From Escherichia coli (lineage in GTDB: Bacteria > Pseudomonadota > Gammaproteobacteria > Enterobacterales > Enterobacteriaceae), in assembly GCF_013122565.1 (NCBI RefSeq), contig NZ_CP053258.1: a stretch of DNA of 64,000 nt, one strand, 5' to 3'. The translations under genes and the position numbers were made by a program. This document shows positions 13,592 through 60,104 of the stretch, piece by piece. The first letter of the stretch is position 1. Every line of letters starts with the position of its first letter. The notes under the pieces were generated by a model. That model did no database searches. It was not told the DNA's origin and was given only the letters and a program-made list of their open reading frames with translations.

Positions 13592-13624
13592 AGTGTTGCC
13601 TTTTTGTTATCAATAAAAAAGGCC

Positions 13625-13652
13625 CCCCGATTTGGGAGGCCTTATTGTTCGT
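13625..13652 (-). terminator. pheA attenuator terminator
   Basis: On minus strand AAGGCCTCCC-AAATC-GGGGGGCC followed by TTTTTT, between pheL stop (13690) and pheA start (13591). Confidence 0.65.
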
Positions 13653-13689
13653 CTTCGCATTCTGTTTCACACGACGAAACGCCTCCCAT

Positions 13690-13737
13690 TCAGGGGAAGG
13701 TAAAAAAGAATGCGAAGAAAAACGGTGTGTGTTTCAT
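13690..13737 (-). CDS. pheL: pheA operon leader peptide (15 aa, 7 Phe codons)
   Basis: Minus-strand ATG AAA CAC ACA CCG TTT TTC TTC GCA TTC TTT TTT ACC TTC CCC TGA = [15 protein letters not shown]. Below the ORF-track size cutoff. Confidence 0.8.
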   Translation of the reverse strand: [15 protein letters not shown]

Positions 13738-13790
13738 GTTTGTTTCCTTAAGTGACTTTAGTACAGTACCCGTACTGTTTTCACGCTGTC

Positions 13791-17033: not shown

Positions 17034-17095
17034 CCTAAAGAATCAAGACGATCCGGTACGCGTGATTTTCTTTTCACATTAATCTGGTCAATAAC

Positions 17096-17124
17096 CTTGA
17101 ATAATTGAGGGATGACCTCATTTA
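17096..17124 (+). promoter_or_regulatory. sigma32 heat-shock promoter of clpB
   Basis: CTTGAAT (17096-17102) and CCTCATTTA (17116-17124), 13-bp spacer, about 40 bp upstream of clpB ATG. Confidence 0.5.
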
Positions 17125-17162
17125 ATCTCCAGTAGCAACTTTGATCCGTTATGGGAGGAGTT

Positions 17163-19736
17163 ATGCGTCTGGATCGTCTTACTAATAAATTCCAGCTTGC
17201 TCTTGCCGATGCCCAATCACTTGCACTCGGGCACGACAACCAATTCATCGAACCACTTCATTTAATGAGCGCCCTGCTGAATCAGGAAGGGGGTTCGGTT
17301 AGTCCTTTGTTAACATCCGCTGGCATTAATGCTGGCCAGTTGCGCACAGATATCAATCAGGCATTAAATCGTTTACCGCAGGTTGAAGGTACTGGTGGTG
17401 ATGTCCAGCCATCACAAGATCTGGTGCGCGTTCTTAATCTTTGCGACAAGCTGGCGCAAAAACGTGGTGATAACTTTATCTCGTCAGAACTGTTCGTTCT
17501 GGCGGCACTTGAGTCTCGCGGCACGCTGGCCGACATCCTGAAAGCAGCAGGGGCGACCACCGCCAACATTACTCAAGCGATTGAACAAATGCGTGGAGGT
17601 GAAAGCGTGAACGATCAAGGTGCTGAAGACCAACGTCAGGCTTTGAAAAAATATACCATCGACCTTACCGAACGAGCCGAACAAGGCAAACTCGATCCGG
17701 TGATTGGTCGTGATGAAGAAATTCGCCGTACCATTCAGGTGCTGCAACGTCGTACTAAAAATAACCCGGTACTGATTGGTGAACCCGGCGTCGGTAAAAC
17801 TGCCATCGTTGAAGGTCTGGCGCAGCGTATTATCAACGGCGAAGTGCCGGAAGGGTTGAAAGGCCGCCGGGTACTGGCGCTGGATATGGGCGCGCTGGTG
17901 GCTGGGGCGAAATATCGCGGTGAGTTTGAAGAACGTTTAAAAGGCGTGCTTAACGATCTTGCCAAACAGGAAGGCAACGTCATCCTGTTTATCGACGAAT
18001 TACATACCATGGTCGGCGCGGGTAAAGCCGATGGCGCAATGGACGCCGGAAACATGCTGAAACCGGCGCTGGCGCGTGGTGAATTGCACTGCGTAGGTGC
18101 CACGACGCTTGACGAATATCGCCAGTACATCGAAAAAGATGCTGCGCTGGAACGTCGTTTCCAGAAAGTGTTTGTTGCCGAGCCTTCTGTTGAAGATACC
18201 ATTGCGATTCTGCGTGGCCTGAAAGAACGTTACGAATTGCACCACCATGTGCAAATTACTGACCCGGCAATTGTTGCAGCGGCGACGTTGTCTCATCGCT
18301 ACATTGCTGACCGTCAGCTGCCGGATAAAGCCATCGACCTGATCGATGAAGCAGCATCCAGCATTCGTATGCAGATTGACTCAAAACCAGAAGAACTCGA
18401 CCGACTCGATCGTCGTATCATCCAGCTCAAACTGGAACAACAGGCGTTAATGAAAGAGTCTGATGAAGCCAGTAAAAAACGCCTGGATATGCTCAACGAA
18501 GAACTGAGCGACAAAGAACGTCAGTACTCCGAGTTAGAAGAAGAGTGGAAAGCAGAGAAGGCATCGCTTTCTGGTACGCAGACCATTAAAGCGGAACTGG
18601 AACAGGCGAAAATCGCTATTGAACAGGCTCGCCGTGTGGGTGACCTGGCGCGGATGTCTGAACTGCAATACGGCAAAATCCCGGAACTGGAAAAGCAACT
18701 GGAAGCCGCAACGCAGCTCGAAGGCAAAACTATGCGTCTGTTGCGTAATAAAGTGACCGACGCCGAAATTGCTGAAGTGCTGGCGCGTTGGACGGGGATT
18801 CCGGTTTCTCGCATGATGGAAAGCGAGCGCGAAAAACTGCTGCGTATGGAGCAAGAACTGCACCATCGCGTAATTGGTCAGAACGAAGCGGTTGATGCGG
18901 TATCTAACGCTATTCGTCGTAGCCGTGCGGGGCTGGCGGATCCAAATCGCCCGATTGGTTCATTCCTGTTCCTCGGCCCAACTGGTGTGGGGAAAACAGA
19001 GCTTTGTAAGGCGCTGGCGAACTTTATGTTTGATAGCGACGAGGCGATGGTCCGTATCGATATGTCCGAGTTTATGGAGAAACACTCGGTGTCTCGTCTG
19101 GTTGGTGCGCCTCCGGGATATGTCGGTTATGAAGAAGGTGGCTACCTGACCGAAGCTGTGCGTCGTCGTCCGTATTCCGTCATCCTGCTGGATGAAGTGG
19201 AAAAAGCGCATCCGGATGTCTTCAATATTCTGTTGCAGGTACTGGATGATGGGCGTCTGACTGACGGGCAGGGGAGAACGGTCGACTTCCGTAATACGGT
19301 TGTCATTATGACCTCTAACCTCGGTTCCGATCTGATTCAGGAACGCTTCGGTGAACTGGATTATGCGCACATGAAAGAGCTGGTGCTCGGTGTGGTTAGC
19401 CATAACTTCCGTCCGGAATTCATTAACCGTATCGATGAAGTGGTGGTCTTCCATCCGCTGGGTGAACAGCACATTGCGTCGATTGCGCAGATTCAATTGA
19501 AACGTCTGTATAAACGTCTGGAAGAACGTGGTTATGAAATCCACATTTCTGACGAGGCGCTGAAACTGCTGAGCGAGAACGGTTACGATCCGGTCTATGG
19601 TGCACGTCCTCTGAAACGTGCAATTCAGCAGCAGATCGAAAACCCGCTGGCACAGCAAATACTGTCTGGTGAATTGGTTCCGGGTAAAGTGATTCGCCTG
19701 GAAGTTAATGAAGACCGGATTGTCGCCGTCCAGTAA
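17163..19736 (+). CDS. clpB: AAA+ disaggregase chaperone ClpB
   Basis: ORF track 17151..19736; ATG at 17163 after GGGAGGAG gives [19 protein letters not shown]..., 857 aa; two Walker A sites ([16 protein letters not shown]). Confidence 0.96.
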
Positions 19737-20179: not shown

Positions 20180-21721
<1,542 letters not shown>

Positions 21722-21806
21722 CCTTAAAGAAGCGTTCTTTGAAGTGCTCACACAGATTGTCTGATAGAAAGTGAAAAGCAAGGCGTCTTGCGAAGCAGAC
21801 TGATAC

Positions 21807-21882
21807 GTCCCCTTCGTCTAGAGGCCCAGGACACCGCCCTTTCACGGCGGTAACAGGGGTTCGAATCCCCTAGGGGACGCCA
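21807..21882 (+). tRNA. gltW: tRNA-Glu (anticodon UUC) in the 16S-23S spacer
   Basis: GTCCCCTTCGTCTAGAGGCCCAGGACACCGCCCTTTCACGGCGGTAACAGGGGTTCGAATCCCCTAGGGGACGCCA, 76 nt ending CCA. Confidence 0.95.
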
Positions 21883-22066
21883 CTTGCTGGTTTGTGAGTG
21901 AAAGTCACCTGCCTTAATATCTCAAAACTCATCTTCGGGTGATGTTTGAGATATTTGCTCTTTAAAAATCTGGATCAAGCTGAAAATTGAAACACTGAAC
22001 AACGAATGTTGTTCGTGAGTCTCTCAAATTTTCGCAACTCTGAAGTGAAACATCTTCGGGTTGTGA

Positions 22067-24970
<2,904 letters not shown>

Positions 24971-25063
24971 ACAACGCCGAAGCTGTTTTGGCGGATTGAG
25001 AGAAGATTTTCAGCCTGATACAGATTAAATCAGAACGCAGAAGCGGTCTGATAAAACAGAATT

Positions 25064-25183
25064 TGCCTGGCGGCCTTAGCGCGGTGGTCCCACCTGACCC
25101 CATGCCGAACTCAGAAGTGAAACGCCGTAGCGCCGATGGTAGTGTGGGGTCTCCCCATGCGAGAGTAGGGAACTGCCAGGCAT
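25064..25183 (+). rRNA. rrfG: 5S ribosomal RNA
   Basis: TGCCTGGCGGCCTTAGCGCGGTGGTCCCACCTGACCCCATGCCGAACTCAG...GGGAACTGCCAGGCAT, 120 nt. Confidence 0.96.
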
Positions 25184-36871: not shown

Positions 36872-36971
36872 TGCCGGATGCGGCGTGAACGCCTTATCCG
36901 GCCTACAAGATCGTGCAAATTCAATATATTGCATGAGCCACGTAGGCCTGATAAGCGTAGCGCATCAGGCA
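36872..36971. repeat. BIME: two inverted REP palindromic units
   Basis: TGCCGGATGCGGCGTGAACGCCTTATCCGGCCTACA and inverted GTAGGCCTGATAAGCGTAGCGCATCAGGCA. Confidence 0.7.
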
Positions 36972-42499: not shown

Positions 42500-43455
42500 T
42501 GAAGCAACTTTGGTTTGCCATGTCATTAGTGACAGGTAGCCTGTTATTCTCTGCTAACGCCTCGGCCACTCCCGCGTCCGGGGCGTTATTACAGCAGATG
42601 AACCTGGCCAGTCAGTCACTGAATTACGAGCTGTCATTCATCAGCATCAATAAACAGGGTGTTGAGTCTCTGCGTTATCGACATGCACGCCTCGATAACC
42701 GTCCTCTTGCACAATTGTTGCAAATGGATGGCCCGCGCCGGGAAGTGGTACAGCGCGGCAATGAAATCAGCTATTTTGAACCGGGACTTGAACCGTTCAC
42801 GCTTAATGGCGATTACATTGTTGATTCTCTGCCATCGCTCATCTATACCGATTTCAAACGCCTTTCTCCTTACTACGACTTTATCTCCGTCGGGCGCACG
42901 CGTATTGCTGATCGTCTTTGCGAAGTTATTCGCGTGGTTGCCCGAGATGGTACACGCTACAGCTACATCGTGTGGATGGACACCGAATCGAAATTACCGA
43001 TGAGGGTTGATCTCCTTGATCGCGATGGTGAAACGCTGGAACAATTTCGCGTGATTGCTTTTAATGTCAATCAGGATATCAGCAGCAGTATGCAGACGCT
43101 GGCGAAGGCAAATTTGCCGCCGTTGCTTTCTGTTCCTGTAGGTGAAAAAGCTAAATTCAGCTGGACGCCAACCTGGTTGCCACAGGGTTTTAGCGAAGTT
43201 TCCAGTAGTCGACGTCCGCTACCGACGATGGACAACATGCCTATCGAATCACGTCTCTATTCCGACGGATTATTCAGCTTCTCGGTAAACGTTAACCGCG
43301 CTACGCCATCGAGCACCGATCAGATGTTGCGCACCGGACGCAGAACCGTCAGTACAAGCGTACGTGATAACGCCGAAATCACCATTGTCGGTGAACTGCC
43401 GCCGCAAACGGCGAAACGCATTGCCGAGAATATTAAGTTCGGGGCAGCGCAATGA
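42499..43455 (+). CDS. rseB: sigma-E regulatory protein RseB
   Basis: 318-aa ORF with signal peptide MKQLWFAMSLVTGSLLFSANASA; start overlaps rseA stop. Confidence 0.95.
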   Translation: MKQLWFAMSLVTGSLLFSANASATPASGALLQQMNLASQSLNYELSFISINKQGVESLRYRHARLDNRPLAQLLQMDGPRREVVQRGNEISYFEPGLEPFTLNGDYIVDSLPSLIYTDFKRLSPYYDFISVGRTRIADRLCEVIRVVARDGTRYSYIVWMDTESKLPMRVDLLDRDGETLEQFRVIAFNVNQDISSSMQTLAKANLPPLLSVPVGEKAKFSWTPTWLPQGFSEVSSSRRPLPTMDNMPIESRLYSDGLFSFSVNVNRATPSSTDQMLRTGRRTVSTSVRDNAEITIVGELPPQTAKRIAENIKFGAAQ

Positions 43456-43931
43456 TCAAAGAGTGGGCTACCGTCGTCTCCTGGCAAAACGGGCAGGCGC
43501 TGGTCAGTTGTGATGTTAAAGCCTCATGCAGCAGCTGCGCTTCACGCGCCGGTTGCGGTAGCCGCGTGTTGAATAAACTTGGCCCGCAAACCACGCATAC
43601 CATTGTCGTACCCTGTGATGAGCCGTTAGTGCCGGGGCAAAAAGTGGAATTGGGGATCGCCGAAGGCAGCCTGCTTAGCTCCGCATTACTGGTTTATATG
43701 TCGCCGCTGGTGGGATTATTCCTCATCGCTTCGCTATTTCAGCTACTCTTTGCTTCTGACGTCGCAGCATTATGTGGTGCTGTCCTCGGCGGTATTAGCG
43801 GGTTCCTGATTGCGCGTGGCTACTCGCGTAAGTTTGCTGCCCGGGCAGAATGGCAACCGATCATCTTAAGCGTGGCATTGCCGCCTGGCCTTGTGCGATT
43901 TGAAACATCTTCGGAAGACGCGAGCCAGTGA
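43452..43931 (+). CDS. rseC: sigma-E regulatory protein RseC
   Basis: 159-aa ORF MIKEWATVVSWQNGQALVSCDVKASCSSC...; overlaps rseB stop. Confidence 0.93.
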   Translation: MIKEWATVVSWQNGQALVSCDVKASCSSCASRAGCGSRVLNKLGPQTTHTIVVPCDEPLVPGQKVELGIAEGSLLSSALLVYMSPLVGLFLIASLFQLLFASDVAALCGAVLGGISGFLIARGYSRKFAARAEWQPIILSVALPPGLVRFETSSEDASQ

Positions 43932-44128
43932 TTTCACTGGCTTTGTTGCATTTTGCATAACAAATGCGAGGACGTTTCCAGATACCACAATCCATACGGT
44001 ATGAACATTTCCTCGCCTCAATGTTGTAGTGTAGAATGCGGCGTTTCTATTAATACAGACGTTAAGCTCAGAACAGCGACTTCTAAAAGCCTGGTTAACC
44101 GGGCATTAAGGCACAATAATCATACTTT

Positions 44129-45928
<1,800 letters not shown>

Positions 45929-46970: not shown

Positions 46971-47062
46971 TGAGATAAATCTCCCGTGGCTAACGACATC
47001 CCCCGTCGTTGTGTATAGAATATTCCCCCGAAGTTTAAGGTTGGCACCTCCAGGTTGCCACG

Positions 47063-47156
47063 GCACACGAAACAGCGTTGGTCCCCATATACCGGTAAAC
47101 TGAAACTGCAGCGAAGCAGTTAGCAGAACCATGTATATCAGGTCTGTTTCGTGTGC
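47063..47156 (+). promoter_or_regulatory. rnc 5' leader stem-loop (candidate RNase III autoregulatory processing site)
   Basis: GCACACGAAACAG (47063-47075) pairs with CTGTTTCGTGTGC (47144-47156), a 13-bp long-range stem enclosing about 68 nt, just upstream of rnc ATG at 47190. Confidence 0.5.
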
Positions 47157-47159
47157 TGA

Positions 47160-48772
<1,613 letters not shown>

Positions 48773-49523: not shown

Positions 49524-50255
49524 ATGGCTGAATTACTGTTAGGCGTCAACATTGACCATATTGCAACGCTGCGTAACGCACGCGGTACTGCTTACCCGGA
49601 TCCGGTGCAGGCGGCGTTTATTGCTGAGCAGGCGGGAGCAGACGGCATTACCGTGCATTTACGTGAAGATCGCCGCCACATTACTGACCGCGATGTGCGC
49701 ATCCTGCGTCAGACGCTGGATACCCGCATGAATCTGGAGATGGCAGTGACCGAAGAGATGCTGGCGATCGCCGTTGAGACGAAGCCACATTTTTGCTGCC
49801 TGGTACCGGAAAAGCGTCAGGAAGTCACGACCGAAGGCGGCCTGGACGTCGCAGGGCAGCGTGACAAAATGCGAGATGCCTGCAAACGTCTGGCGGATGC
49901 CGGGATTCAGGTTTCTCTGTTTATCGACGCCGATGAAGAGCAGATCAAAGCTGCGGCAGAGGTTGGCGCACCGTTTATCGAGATCCACACTGGTTGCTAT
50001 GCTGATGCCAAAACTGACGCCGAACAGGCGCAAGAGCTGGCGCGTATCGCCAAAGCCGCGACCTTTGCCGCTAGTCTCGGTCTGAAAGTTAACGCTGGTC
50101 ACGGTCTGACCTATCACAACGTGAAAGCCATTGCCGCCATTCCTGAGATGCACGAACTGAATATCGGTCATGCCATTATTGGTCGTGCAGTGATGACCGG
50201 ACTGAAAGATGCGGTGGCAGAAATGAAGCGTCTGATGCTGGAAGCGCGTGGCTAA
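49524..50255 (+). CDS. pdxJ: pyridoxine 5'-phosphate synthase
   Basis: ORF track 49509..50255; ATG at 49524 gives [27 protein letters not shown]..., 243 aa. Confidence 0.95.
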
Positions 50256-50635
50256 TGGCAATATTAGGTTTAGGTACGGATATTGTGGAGATCGCTCGCA
50301 TAGAAGCGGTGATCGCCCGATCCGGTGATCGCCTGGCACGCCGCGTATTAAGCGATAACGAATGGGCAATCTGGAAAACGCACCACCAGCCGGTGCGTTT
50401 TCTGGCGAAGCGTTTTGCTGTGAAAGAAGCGGCGGCAAAAGCGTTTGGCACCGGGATCCGCAATGGTCTGGCGTTTAATCAATTTGAAGTATTCAATGAT
50501 GAGCTCGGCAAACCACGGCTACGGCTATGGGGGGAGGCATTAAAACTGGCGGAAAAGCTCGGCGTTGTAAATATGCATGTAACGCTGGCAGATGAACGCC
50601 ACTATGCTTGTGCCACGGTAATTATTGAAAGTTAA
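50255..50635 (+). CDS. acpS: holo-[acyl-carrier-protein] synthase
   Basis: 126-aa [35 protein letters not shown]...; start overlaps pdxJ stop by 1 nt. Confidence 0.95.
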
Positions 50636-50654
50636 AAAAATACCGTTCTCTTTA

Positions 50655-50730
50655 TAAAGTAAAACCCCCGAACTGGTAAGGAACGGGGGTTTTACTTTAT
50701 TTTGTGCAGCACGCACCCTCAATGAGGATA
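50655..50730 (-). ncRNA. ohsC: candidate OhsC antitoxin sRNA (antisense regulator of shoB); boundaries approximate
   Basis: Minus-strand RNA from about 50725 to the terminator at 50661-50693 would carry the complement of 50704-50725, which is a near-copy of 50951-50972 in the shoB 5' UTR (19/22 identical; two differences become G-U pairs). Candidate -10 CATAAT (plus 50731-50736) and -35 TTGTAA (plus 50755-50760) on minus strand. Confidence 0.45.
50661..50699. terminator. bidirectional rho-independent terminator (acpS operon on plus strand; likely also ohsC on minus strand)
   Basis: AAAACCCCCG-13-nt loop-CGGGGGTTTT, flanked by T-runs on both strands. Confidence 0.6.
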
Positions 50731-51045
50731 ATTATGGATCAGTGTGGTTATCTTTTACAAGCAACTTGCAATCTTTAGTATAAAAACTCGAGCCTTGACG
50801 AAGAAATCGATATTGATGGCAAGATTAACGTGACCGCCAATTCATAAGTACATTAAAATTGGCTTCGTTATTAGAGATTTTGCTGTGCTTTACACCATGC
50901 CACTGAATTCCCCCATTGAAACGAGTGGTGTCGTCAAAGCTCTGGTGTGGAGTGCAGCATGTACCCTCAATAACTCGCACGTTCAGTTTTGGGGAGATGT
51001 AAGGGCTAATCTGAACGGCTGCATTCCTTGTTTAAGGAAAAACGA

Positions 51046-51126
51046 ATGACTGATTGCCGATACCTGATTAAACGGGTCATCAAAATCATCATTGCTGTTT
51101 TACAGCTGATCCTTCTGTTCTTATAA
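51046..51126 (+). CDS. shoB: type I toxin ShoB, 26-aa hydrophobic peptide
   Basis: ATG at 51046 translates MTDCRYLIKRVIKIIIAVLQLILLFL then TAA; single predicted transmembrane helix; below ORF-track cutoff. Hairpin GCGTCCG/CGGACGC at 51149-51172 downstream. Confidence 0.8.
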   Translation: MTDCRYLIKRVIKIIIAVLQLILLFL

Positions 51127-51319
51127 CACAAGGAAACGTACTTAAGGTGCGTCCGGTGAACCAGTCGGACGCGCCTTTAATAACTATAAATAAGTGTCTG
51201 GGCAGATACTATATAAATTAACTTAGTGAATGATTATGCCAATGTCATCAATCAAAAAAATATAATAGCGTTAAGGTTTCTCTATAAAATAATTAACACT
51301 CTACATCCAGAGTAGAATA

Positions 51320-51616
<297 letters not shown>

Positions 51617-59920: not shown

Positions 59921-60104
59921 AGTGGCTCATTCACCGACTTATGTCAGCCCCTTCGGGACGTGCTACATAAAATTCGAATGACGCACAACAAGGTGCCTGC
60001 CGTCCAACTTCTGATATCAGCGTAGCTATATCAACCATCGGGCGAAACGTCGAGTTAGGCACCGCCTTATTCCATAACAAAGCCGGGTAATTCCCGGCTT
60101 TGTT
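59921..60104 (+). ncRNA. glmY: small RNA GlmY
   Basis: Predicted start about 12 nt after sigma54 -12 GC; ends at strong terminator ACAAAGCCGGG-TAATT-CCCGGCTTTGT (60077-60103) followed by TGTATCT; about 184 nt. 5' and 3' ends approximate. Confidence 0.7.

Follow-up and report, generated by a model that had tools for sequence, protein, structure and literature searches.

Type I toxins and their small RNAs (sRNAs) escape both protein-only annotation and open reading frame (ORF) tracks with a length cut-off. [quoted passage not shown] Like shoB/ohsC, the other three systems combine a small hydrophobic toxin with a long structured 5' UTR that requires 5' processing, and the 5' end of the divergent sRNA pairs with 18-21 nt of the leader (~34 nt for agrB), far from the ribosome-binding site (RBS) (PMC3919570, PMC5397157, PMC5066626).

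In K-12, OhsC is expressed and shoB is repressed by it, according to Fozo 2008 as cited in PMC3919570 and PMC5066626. The 5' end of OhsC is complementary to the shoB leader across 19 nt (PMC3919570), and RNase III cleavage has been reported in vivo inside the shoB/OhsC duplex region (PMC6212723). The shoB mRNA has published forms of ~320 nt and ~280 nt (PMC5397157), and the translated mRNA is the processed form only, which starts 41 nt downstream (PMC5066626, PMC5397157). Excess ShoB depolarises the membrane in K-12 (PMC8309996), and over-production of the K-12 peptide, identical to the one described below, is toxic (PMC8309996, PMC5397157). A standby-site mechanism has been proposed for shoB, modelled on tisB and zorO (PMC5397157).

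The DNA analysed in this study is a stretch of 64,000 nucleotides from E. coli, hereafter the window. [quoted passage not shown]

50255..50635, plus strand: acpS (holo-ACP synthase), left flank; a 126-aa ORF, annotated in strain CX12 (99.9% identical) and syntenic in K-12.
51320..51580, minus strand: yfhL (4Fe-4S ferredoxin), right flank; ORF present, annotated in CX12 and in K-12.

Since acpS ends at 50635 and the minus-strand yfhL ends at 51320, the gap measures 684 nt, in agreement with the ~685 bp of a preliminary description made from the sequence without database searches. A 751-nt query spanning the gap found matches in 5,425 of the 5,426 complete E. coli genomes, and all 5,464 matching places are chromosomal. 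The RefSeq feature at the matched place is 'shoB: type I toxin-antitoxin system toxin ShoB', with acpS on one side and yfhL on the other. In strains that are 99.9-100% identical, CX12 (99.9%) among them, RefSeq annotates shoB at the same place and leaves ohsC unannotated. The window and strain AH04 share 100% identity across 561 nt, and the K-12 locus is 94% identical overall. Two genomes gave irregular matches: in LHM10-1 (NZ_CP037903.1) an IS1 family transposase is annotated beneath the two-piece match to the gap query, and EC96 (NZ_CP060748.1) keeps short matching segments alone (59 nt of the 561-nt locus query and 39 nt of the block query described below). A cross-species scan of species representatives found ShoB in E. 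albertii, E. whittamii, two unnamed Escherichia species, and two representatives labelled E. coli, and none outside Escherichia.

The toxin side of the locus comprises the following features.

51046..51126 (stop included), plus strand: shoB CDS, a 26-aa hydrophobic toxin, MTDCRYLIKRVIKIIIAVLQLILLFL; WP_000128776.1, ShoB, in CX12.
50830..50859, plus strand: shoB promoter from a consensus scan, with -35 GTGACC, an 18-nt spacer, and -10 TAAAAT.
50866..51045, plus strand: shoB 5' UTR, ~180 nt, its start placed 7 nt downstream of the -10 box.
51024..51039, plus strand: hairpin UUCCUU/AAGGAA sequestering the Shine-Dalgarno (SD) sequence in the predicted minimum-free-energy fold of the full-length mRNA.
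51139..51182, no strand assigned: inverted repeat 3' of shoB (repeat search), a putative shoB terminator that may also serve the convergent yfhL.

The preliminary description had recognised the 26-codon ORF as hydrophobic and had matched it to ShoB, and both points hold: the peptide is 100% identical to K-12 ShoB (b4687), with a GRAVY value of 1.59 overall and 2.94 in the last 16 residues. Substitutions among alleles are conservative only (V/A/I and I/V/L). An NCBIfam HMM scan with the 26-aa peptide matched no family; therefore, the name ShoB given by NCBI evidently does not come from the NCBIfam HMMs. The promoter hexamers are those listed for shoB in Table 2 of PMC11264685. The predicted transcript (50866-51186) is 321 nt long, and shifting its start 41 nt downstream leaves 280 nt, so that the plus-strand mRNA of about 300 nt first expected would be better described as two forms, ~320 nt at full length and ~280 nt after processing, as published (PMC5397157). 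The SD sequence AAGGAA lies at 51034-51039, 6 nt 5' of the ATG, and this RBS is 100% conserved (PMC11264685). In silico, its mean unpaired probability is 0.21 in the 321-nt form and 0.51 in the 280-nt form. The hairpin at 51139-51182 folds with -22.6 kcal/mol on the plus strand, and its role as a terminator is only putative because its U-tract is poor.

The antitoxin gene lies on the opposite strand, next to acpS.

50654..50723, minus strand: ohsC antitoxin sRNA gene, predicted ~70 nt, 5' end at 50723; ends mapped from the annotated ohsC of K-12 (locus L002, 1521-1599).
50731..50760, minus strand: ohsC promoter from a consensus scan, with -35 TTGTAA (50760-50755), an 18-nt spacer, and -10 CATAAT (50736-50731).
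50654..50700, no strand assigned: perfect 17-bp inverted repeat with a 13-nt loop (arms 50654-50670 and 50684-50700), a terminator hairpin common to acpS (plus) and OhsC (minus).

The Rfam model RF02495 (ohsC_RNA) matches 50656-50720 on the minus strand with 73.4 bits, against a gathering score of 50, over model positions 1-77 and with two deletions of 3 nt and 9 nt relative to the model; the K-12 sequence scores 106.8 bits and a class-2 allele (see below) 101.3 bits. When the K-12 ncRNA ohsC (b4608) is aligned to the window on the minus strand, its 5' end falls at 50723 and its 3' end at ~50654. The predicted +1 (50723) is 7 nt past the -10 box, and the hexamers are those listed for ohsC in Table 2 of PMC11264685. 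Thus the suggestion that a minus-strand RNA here would fit OhsC is borne out by the model match, by the alignment, and by the published promoter.

The bidirectional terminator suggested earlier at 50661-50693 is a genuine hairpin, but that interval is only the G+C core of the longer repeat at 50654-50700, whose arms are 17 nt each. The hairpin forms the 3' two thirds of OhsC and equals the 3' stem of RF02495; it folds with -26.9 kcal/mol on the plus strand and -26.3 kcal/mol on the minus strand. A simple terminator scan of the locus, with a loop limit of 8 nt that both hairpins exceed, called no terminator, and the hairpins were assessed by RNA folding since their loops are longer than 8 nt. 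In the predicted fold of the 70-nt OhsC, a largely open 5' end is followed by 3 nt and then by the 17-bp terminator hairpin; the K-12 fold has the same parts with a linker of 12 nt.

Because the terminator is nearly palindromic (50652-50700), the plus strand also matches the 3' half of the ohsC model with 34.3 bits. Sub-threshold Rfam matches on the same hairpin (Thr_leader with 35.8 against 55 bits, His_leader, STnc370, several miRNA families, and IS128) were rejected as terminator look-alikes. Elsewhere in the window, Rfam matches above the gathering score are the Phe leader (13613-13738), RyfD (17044-17182), ES036 (36907-36949), AsrC, the antisense of rseC (43416-44247), rncO (47030-47244), and GlmY (59921-60068), as well as an rrn operon at 20180-25181 with 16S, tRNA-Glu, 23S, and 5S and a StyR-44 match in the spacer.

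The two sides of the locus are connected by a short repeat.

50704..50723, minus strand: OhsC 5'-terminal target-recognition block, with 18 Watson-Crick and 2 G-U pairs and no mismatch.
50952..50971, plus strand: site in the shoB leader targeted by OhsC, lying 75 nt before the start codon, from the repeat and duplex prediction.

A repeat search returned these segments as a direct repeat of 20 nt with 90% identity and 2 differences. The degenerate 20-mer occurs at only two sites in the 64 kb, and at least two matches were found in 0 of 100 shuffles. The preliminary description had paired 50704-50725 with 50951-50972; the repeat itself is real, but its register on the shoB side was one base out, and the correct 22-nt partner is 50952-50973. 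In this version there are three differences: the two T/C ones yield G-U pairs, and the A/G one yields an A-C mismatch. This agrees with the earlier expectation that a minus-strand RNA would pair with the leader over about 20 nt and that two of the three differences would be tolerated as G-U. RNAduplex gives -38.7 kcal/mol for OhsC nt 1-20 with leader 50952-50971, compared with -41.4 for the cognate K-12 duplex.

To follow this pairing across alleles, 12 further E. coli alleles over the identity range and six Escherichia species representatives were sampled. E. albertii, E. whittamii, and E. coli E69 were left out of the pair count; the fetched loci of the first two begin too near shoB to contain ohsC, and the ohsC of E69 is seen in the alignment outside the anchor pattern. 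The leader block of E. albertii (L016, 140-160; fetched without ohsC) reads GTGCAGCACGCATCCTCAAT and differs by three changes from that of the window. Overall, the pairing blocks fall into two classes that differ by an exchange of ACCCT for GATTC; the exchange affects ohsC and the leader alike and so amounts to five compensatory pairs. The window and K-12 belong to class 1, with GTGCAGCA[T/C]GCACCCTCAA in ohsC and GTGCAGCATG[C/T]ACCCTCAAT in the leader, and class 2 (O157:H7 and others) has GTGCAGCACACGATTCCAAC in ohsC and GTGCAGCACTCGATTCCAAT in the leader. When the 8 distinct allele pairs were joined into artificial leader-loop-OhsC sequences and aligned, standard pairing held in 98.1% of cells; both partners have changed in five of the pairs and only one partner in three, and one pair is U-U in class 2. 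Slid registers of the same alignment are 24-50% paired, with at most one pair changed on both sides. The predicted duplexes range from -34 to -43 kcal/mol for cognate partners, whereas cross-class partners, the window being counted with class 1, reach only -19 to -28 kcal/mol.

A BLAST search with the concatenated blocks across all 5,426 complete E. coli genomes gave the following counts.

ohsC class 1 with leader class 1: 3,637 genomes.
ohsC class 2 with leader class 2: 1,694 genomes.
ohsC class 2 with leader class 1: 1 genome (Z1323CEC0015).
ohsC class 1 with leader class 2: 0 genomes.

Class 2 accounts for ~31% of complete genomes, in agreement with the 33.1% reported for the ohsC -35 variant TTGTAC (PMC11264685). 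The single mixed genome, Z1323CEC0015 (L015, NZ_CP148423.1, from chicken; ~1449-1930), is a recombinant with the breakpoint just past the ohsC promoter, and its predicted duplex is ~-21 kcal/mol against ~-41. The five compensatory pairs are contiguous, a single block that probably reflects one or two events, for example conversion between the repeat copies. Since the two blocks are tightly linked, 248 nt apart, the classes would stay matched even without selection, and their association in the population is not put forward as proof of it. Nevertheless, the joint change of the variable pairing regions across the 5,426 genomes supports base pairing as the selected function.

In the window, the linker that joins the pairing block of OhsC to the terminator stem is 9 nt shorter than in the 79-nt OhsC of K-12, lacking TTAACTTTA (K-12 plus strand). 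The deletion falls between window positions 50699 and 50700, and these 9 nt are present in nearly all other alleles. Two Watson-Crick pairs of K-12 are G-U pairs in the window, one through C in place of T at 50712 (ohsC) and the other through T in place of C at 50962 (leader). In addition, the ohsC +1 is A, not G; 7 of the 8 positions directly upstream of it differ from K-12; and the terminator stem is followed on the minus strand by AUAAAG in place of the UU(A) of K-12, which is a weaker U-tract. The exact allele pair of the window, searched with a block query that includes the deletion junction, occurs in ~14 of the 5,426 complete E. coli genomes. Since the promoter, pairing block, and terminator are all intact, the shortened OhsC is probably still functional.

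In the mechanism proposed for the locus, which builds on the ORF identity, the sRNA covariance-model match, the promoters, the complementarity with its covariation, and the hairpins observed here, shoB would be transcribed rightwards from GTGACC/TAAAAT as a ~320-nt mRNA, whose ~180-nt structured leader would hide the RBS in a hairpin. From the divergent TTGTAA/CATAAT promoter, ohsC would be transcribed leftwards into a ~70-nt sRNA ending in the hairpin that may also terminate acpS. The first 20 nt of OhsC would then pair with leader 50952-50971, far upstream of the RBS, and block ShoB synthesis, probably by competition with a ribosome standby or entry site, by stabilisation of an inactive fold, or by both, and the duplex would be open to RNase III. 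ShoB, once made, would enter the inner membrane and cause depolarisation. Toxicity, repression by OhsC, the activating 5' processing of the mRNA, and RNase III cleavage are carried over in this scheme from the K-12 literature. Repression of the standby-site type is a proposal, for K-12 as for the window.

It could be argued that the minus-strand match is merely the palindromic terminator of acpS and that the 20-nt repeat is a remnant without antisense function. The 3' region of ohsC is indeed almost palindromic (PMC11264685), the plus strand matches the 3' half of the model, and several unrelated families match weakly. However, the full-length match (model 1-77) is found on the minus strand only, 7 nt downstream of a promoter identical to the published ohsC promoter and where the ohsC ncRNA of K-12 is annotated. 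Furthermore, the pairing survives the replacement of a 5-nt block on both sides, and RNase III cleavage is reported in the duplex region (PMC6212723), all of which makes the terminator-only account exceedingly improbable. It is also very improbable, if slightly less so, that ShoB translation is tied to an upstream frame in the manner of hok/mok, with OhsC blocking that frame. A 72-codon frame on the plus strand (50834-51049) does cross the leader and the OhsC target, its TGA overlaps the shoB ATG (ATGA, 51046-51049), and it is open in 20 of the 20 alleles examined, but an open frame is weak evidence at ~95% nucleotide identity among alleles. None of its possible starts is preceded by a convincing SD sequence, the active ~280-nt form begins downstream of its ATG and first GTG, and its substitutions are mostly nonsynonymous (for example 5 vs 2 in E. 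albertii and 3 vs 0 in E69). The coupling frame was judged unsupported on account of the nonsynonymous changes and the lack of an SD sequence.

A different objection accepts the locus as shoB/ohsC and holds that the ohsC allele of the window is weakened or decaying, with lower OhsC stability or pairing, so that shoB is less tightly repressed. The 9-nt deletion, the two G-U pairs, and the poorer U-tract point this way, as do the Rfam score of 73.4 bits against 106.8 in K-12, the rarity of the exact allele, and the distance of just ~3 nt between the 5' hairpin and the terminator stem in the fold. On the other hand, the promoter, all 20 nt of the pairing block, and the perfect 17-bp hairpin of the terminator are intact, +1 is still a purine, and the duplex loses only ~2.7 kcal/mol. 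The same two G-U pairs are present in E69 (L021), which has no deletion; the window allele has been found in dog, cattle, beef, human, bear, and poultry isolates; and an OrzO-OhsC chimera indicates that the 3' part of OhsC is mainly a stabilising scaffold (PMC3919570). A decaying allele thus appears unlikely, though it is the least improbable of the three alternatives.

The preferred reading is that the locus is a true member of the shoB/ohsC family and more than a look-alike, because every defining feature that sequence can test appears to be present. The alignment with K-12 proposed in the preliminary description returned an identical peptide and placed ohsC at ~50654-50723, and its view that this is known biology and not a new system agrees with all sequence-level tests. 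The system is thus already known, textbook biology, and what is new is descriptive only: a shortened OhsC allele that is rare, and pairing blocks that vary in concert as two classes. From these it can be conjectured, with about even chances of being right, that E. coli carries two functionally insulated shoB/ohsC classes with cross-class silencing absent, that the window, with its 70-nt OhsC and wobble-weakened duplex, stands for a third, rare state, and that the toxin of Z1323CEC0015 is mismatched and possibly de-repressed. If true, insulated classes would answer the question left open in PMC11264685, whether the highly variable shoB/ohsC pairing regions keep their pairing potential across strains. 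Natural controls for specificity are at hand in class 1, class 2, the 70-nt OhsC allele, and the recombinant.

The window locus shares with shoB/ohsC of K-12 MG1655 an identical ShoB peptide, the flanking genes, the promoter hexamers, the RBS, and the terminator hairpin, as well as the same divergent sRNA layout, in which OhsC uses its 5' end to pair with the leader, ~75 nt ahead of the start codon. The class-2 allele (O157:H7, JJ1886, and many human, urinary-tract, and poultry isolates) shares the architecture and encodes an identical or almost identical peptide; it differs in the GATTC pairing block on both sides, in one U-U mismatch, and in the ohsC -35 TTGTAC. Within the divergent group, the toxin and sRNA sequences of tisB/istR-1, zorO/orzO, and dinQ/agrB are unrelated to those of shoB/ohsC, and the shoB promoter is without LexA control. 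For tisB and zorO the standby-site mechanism has been demonstrated, and for shoB it is only proposed. Systems of the hok/sok type likewise have a small membrane toxin repressed by an antisense RNA, but Sok overlaps its target gene and acts via the coupled mok frame, whereas OhsC is encoded 248 nt away and has only a 20-nt block in common with its target.
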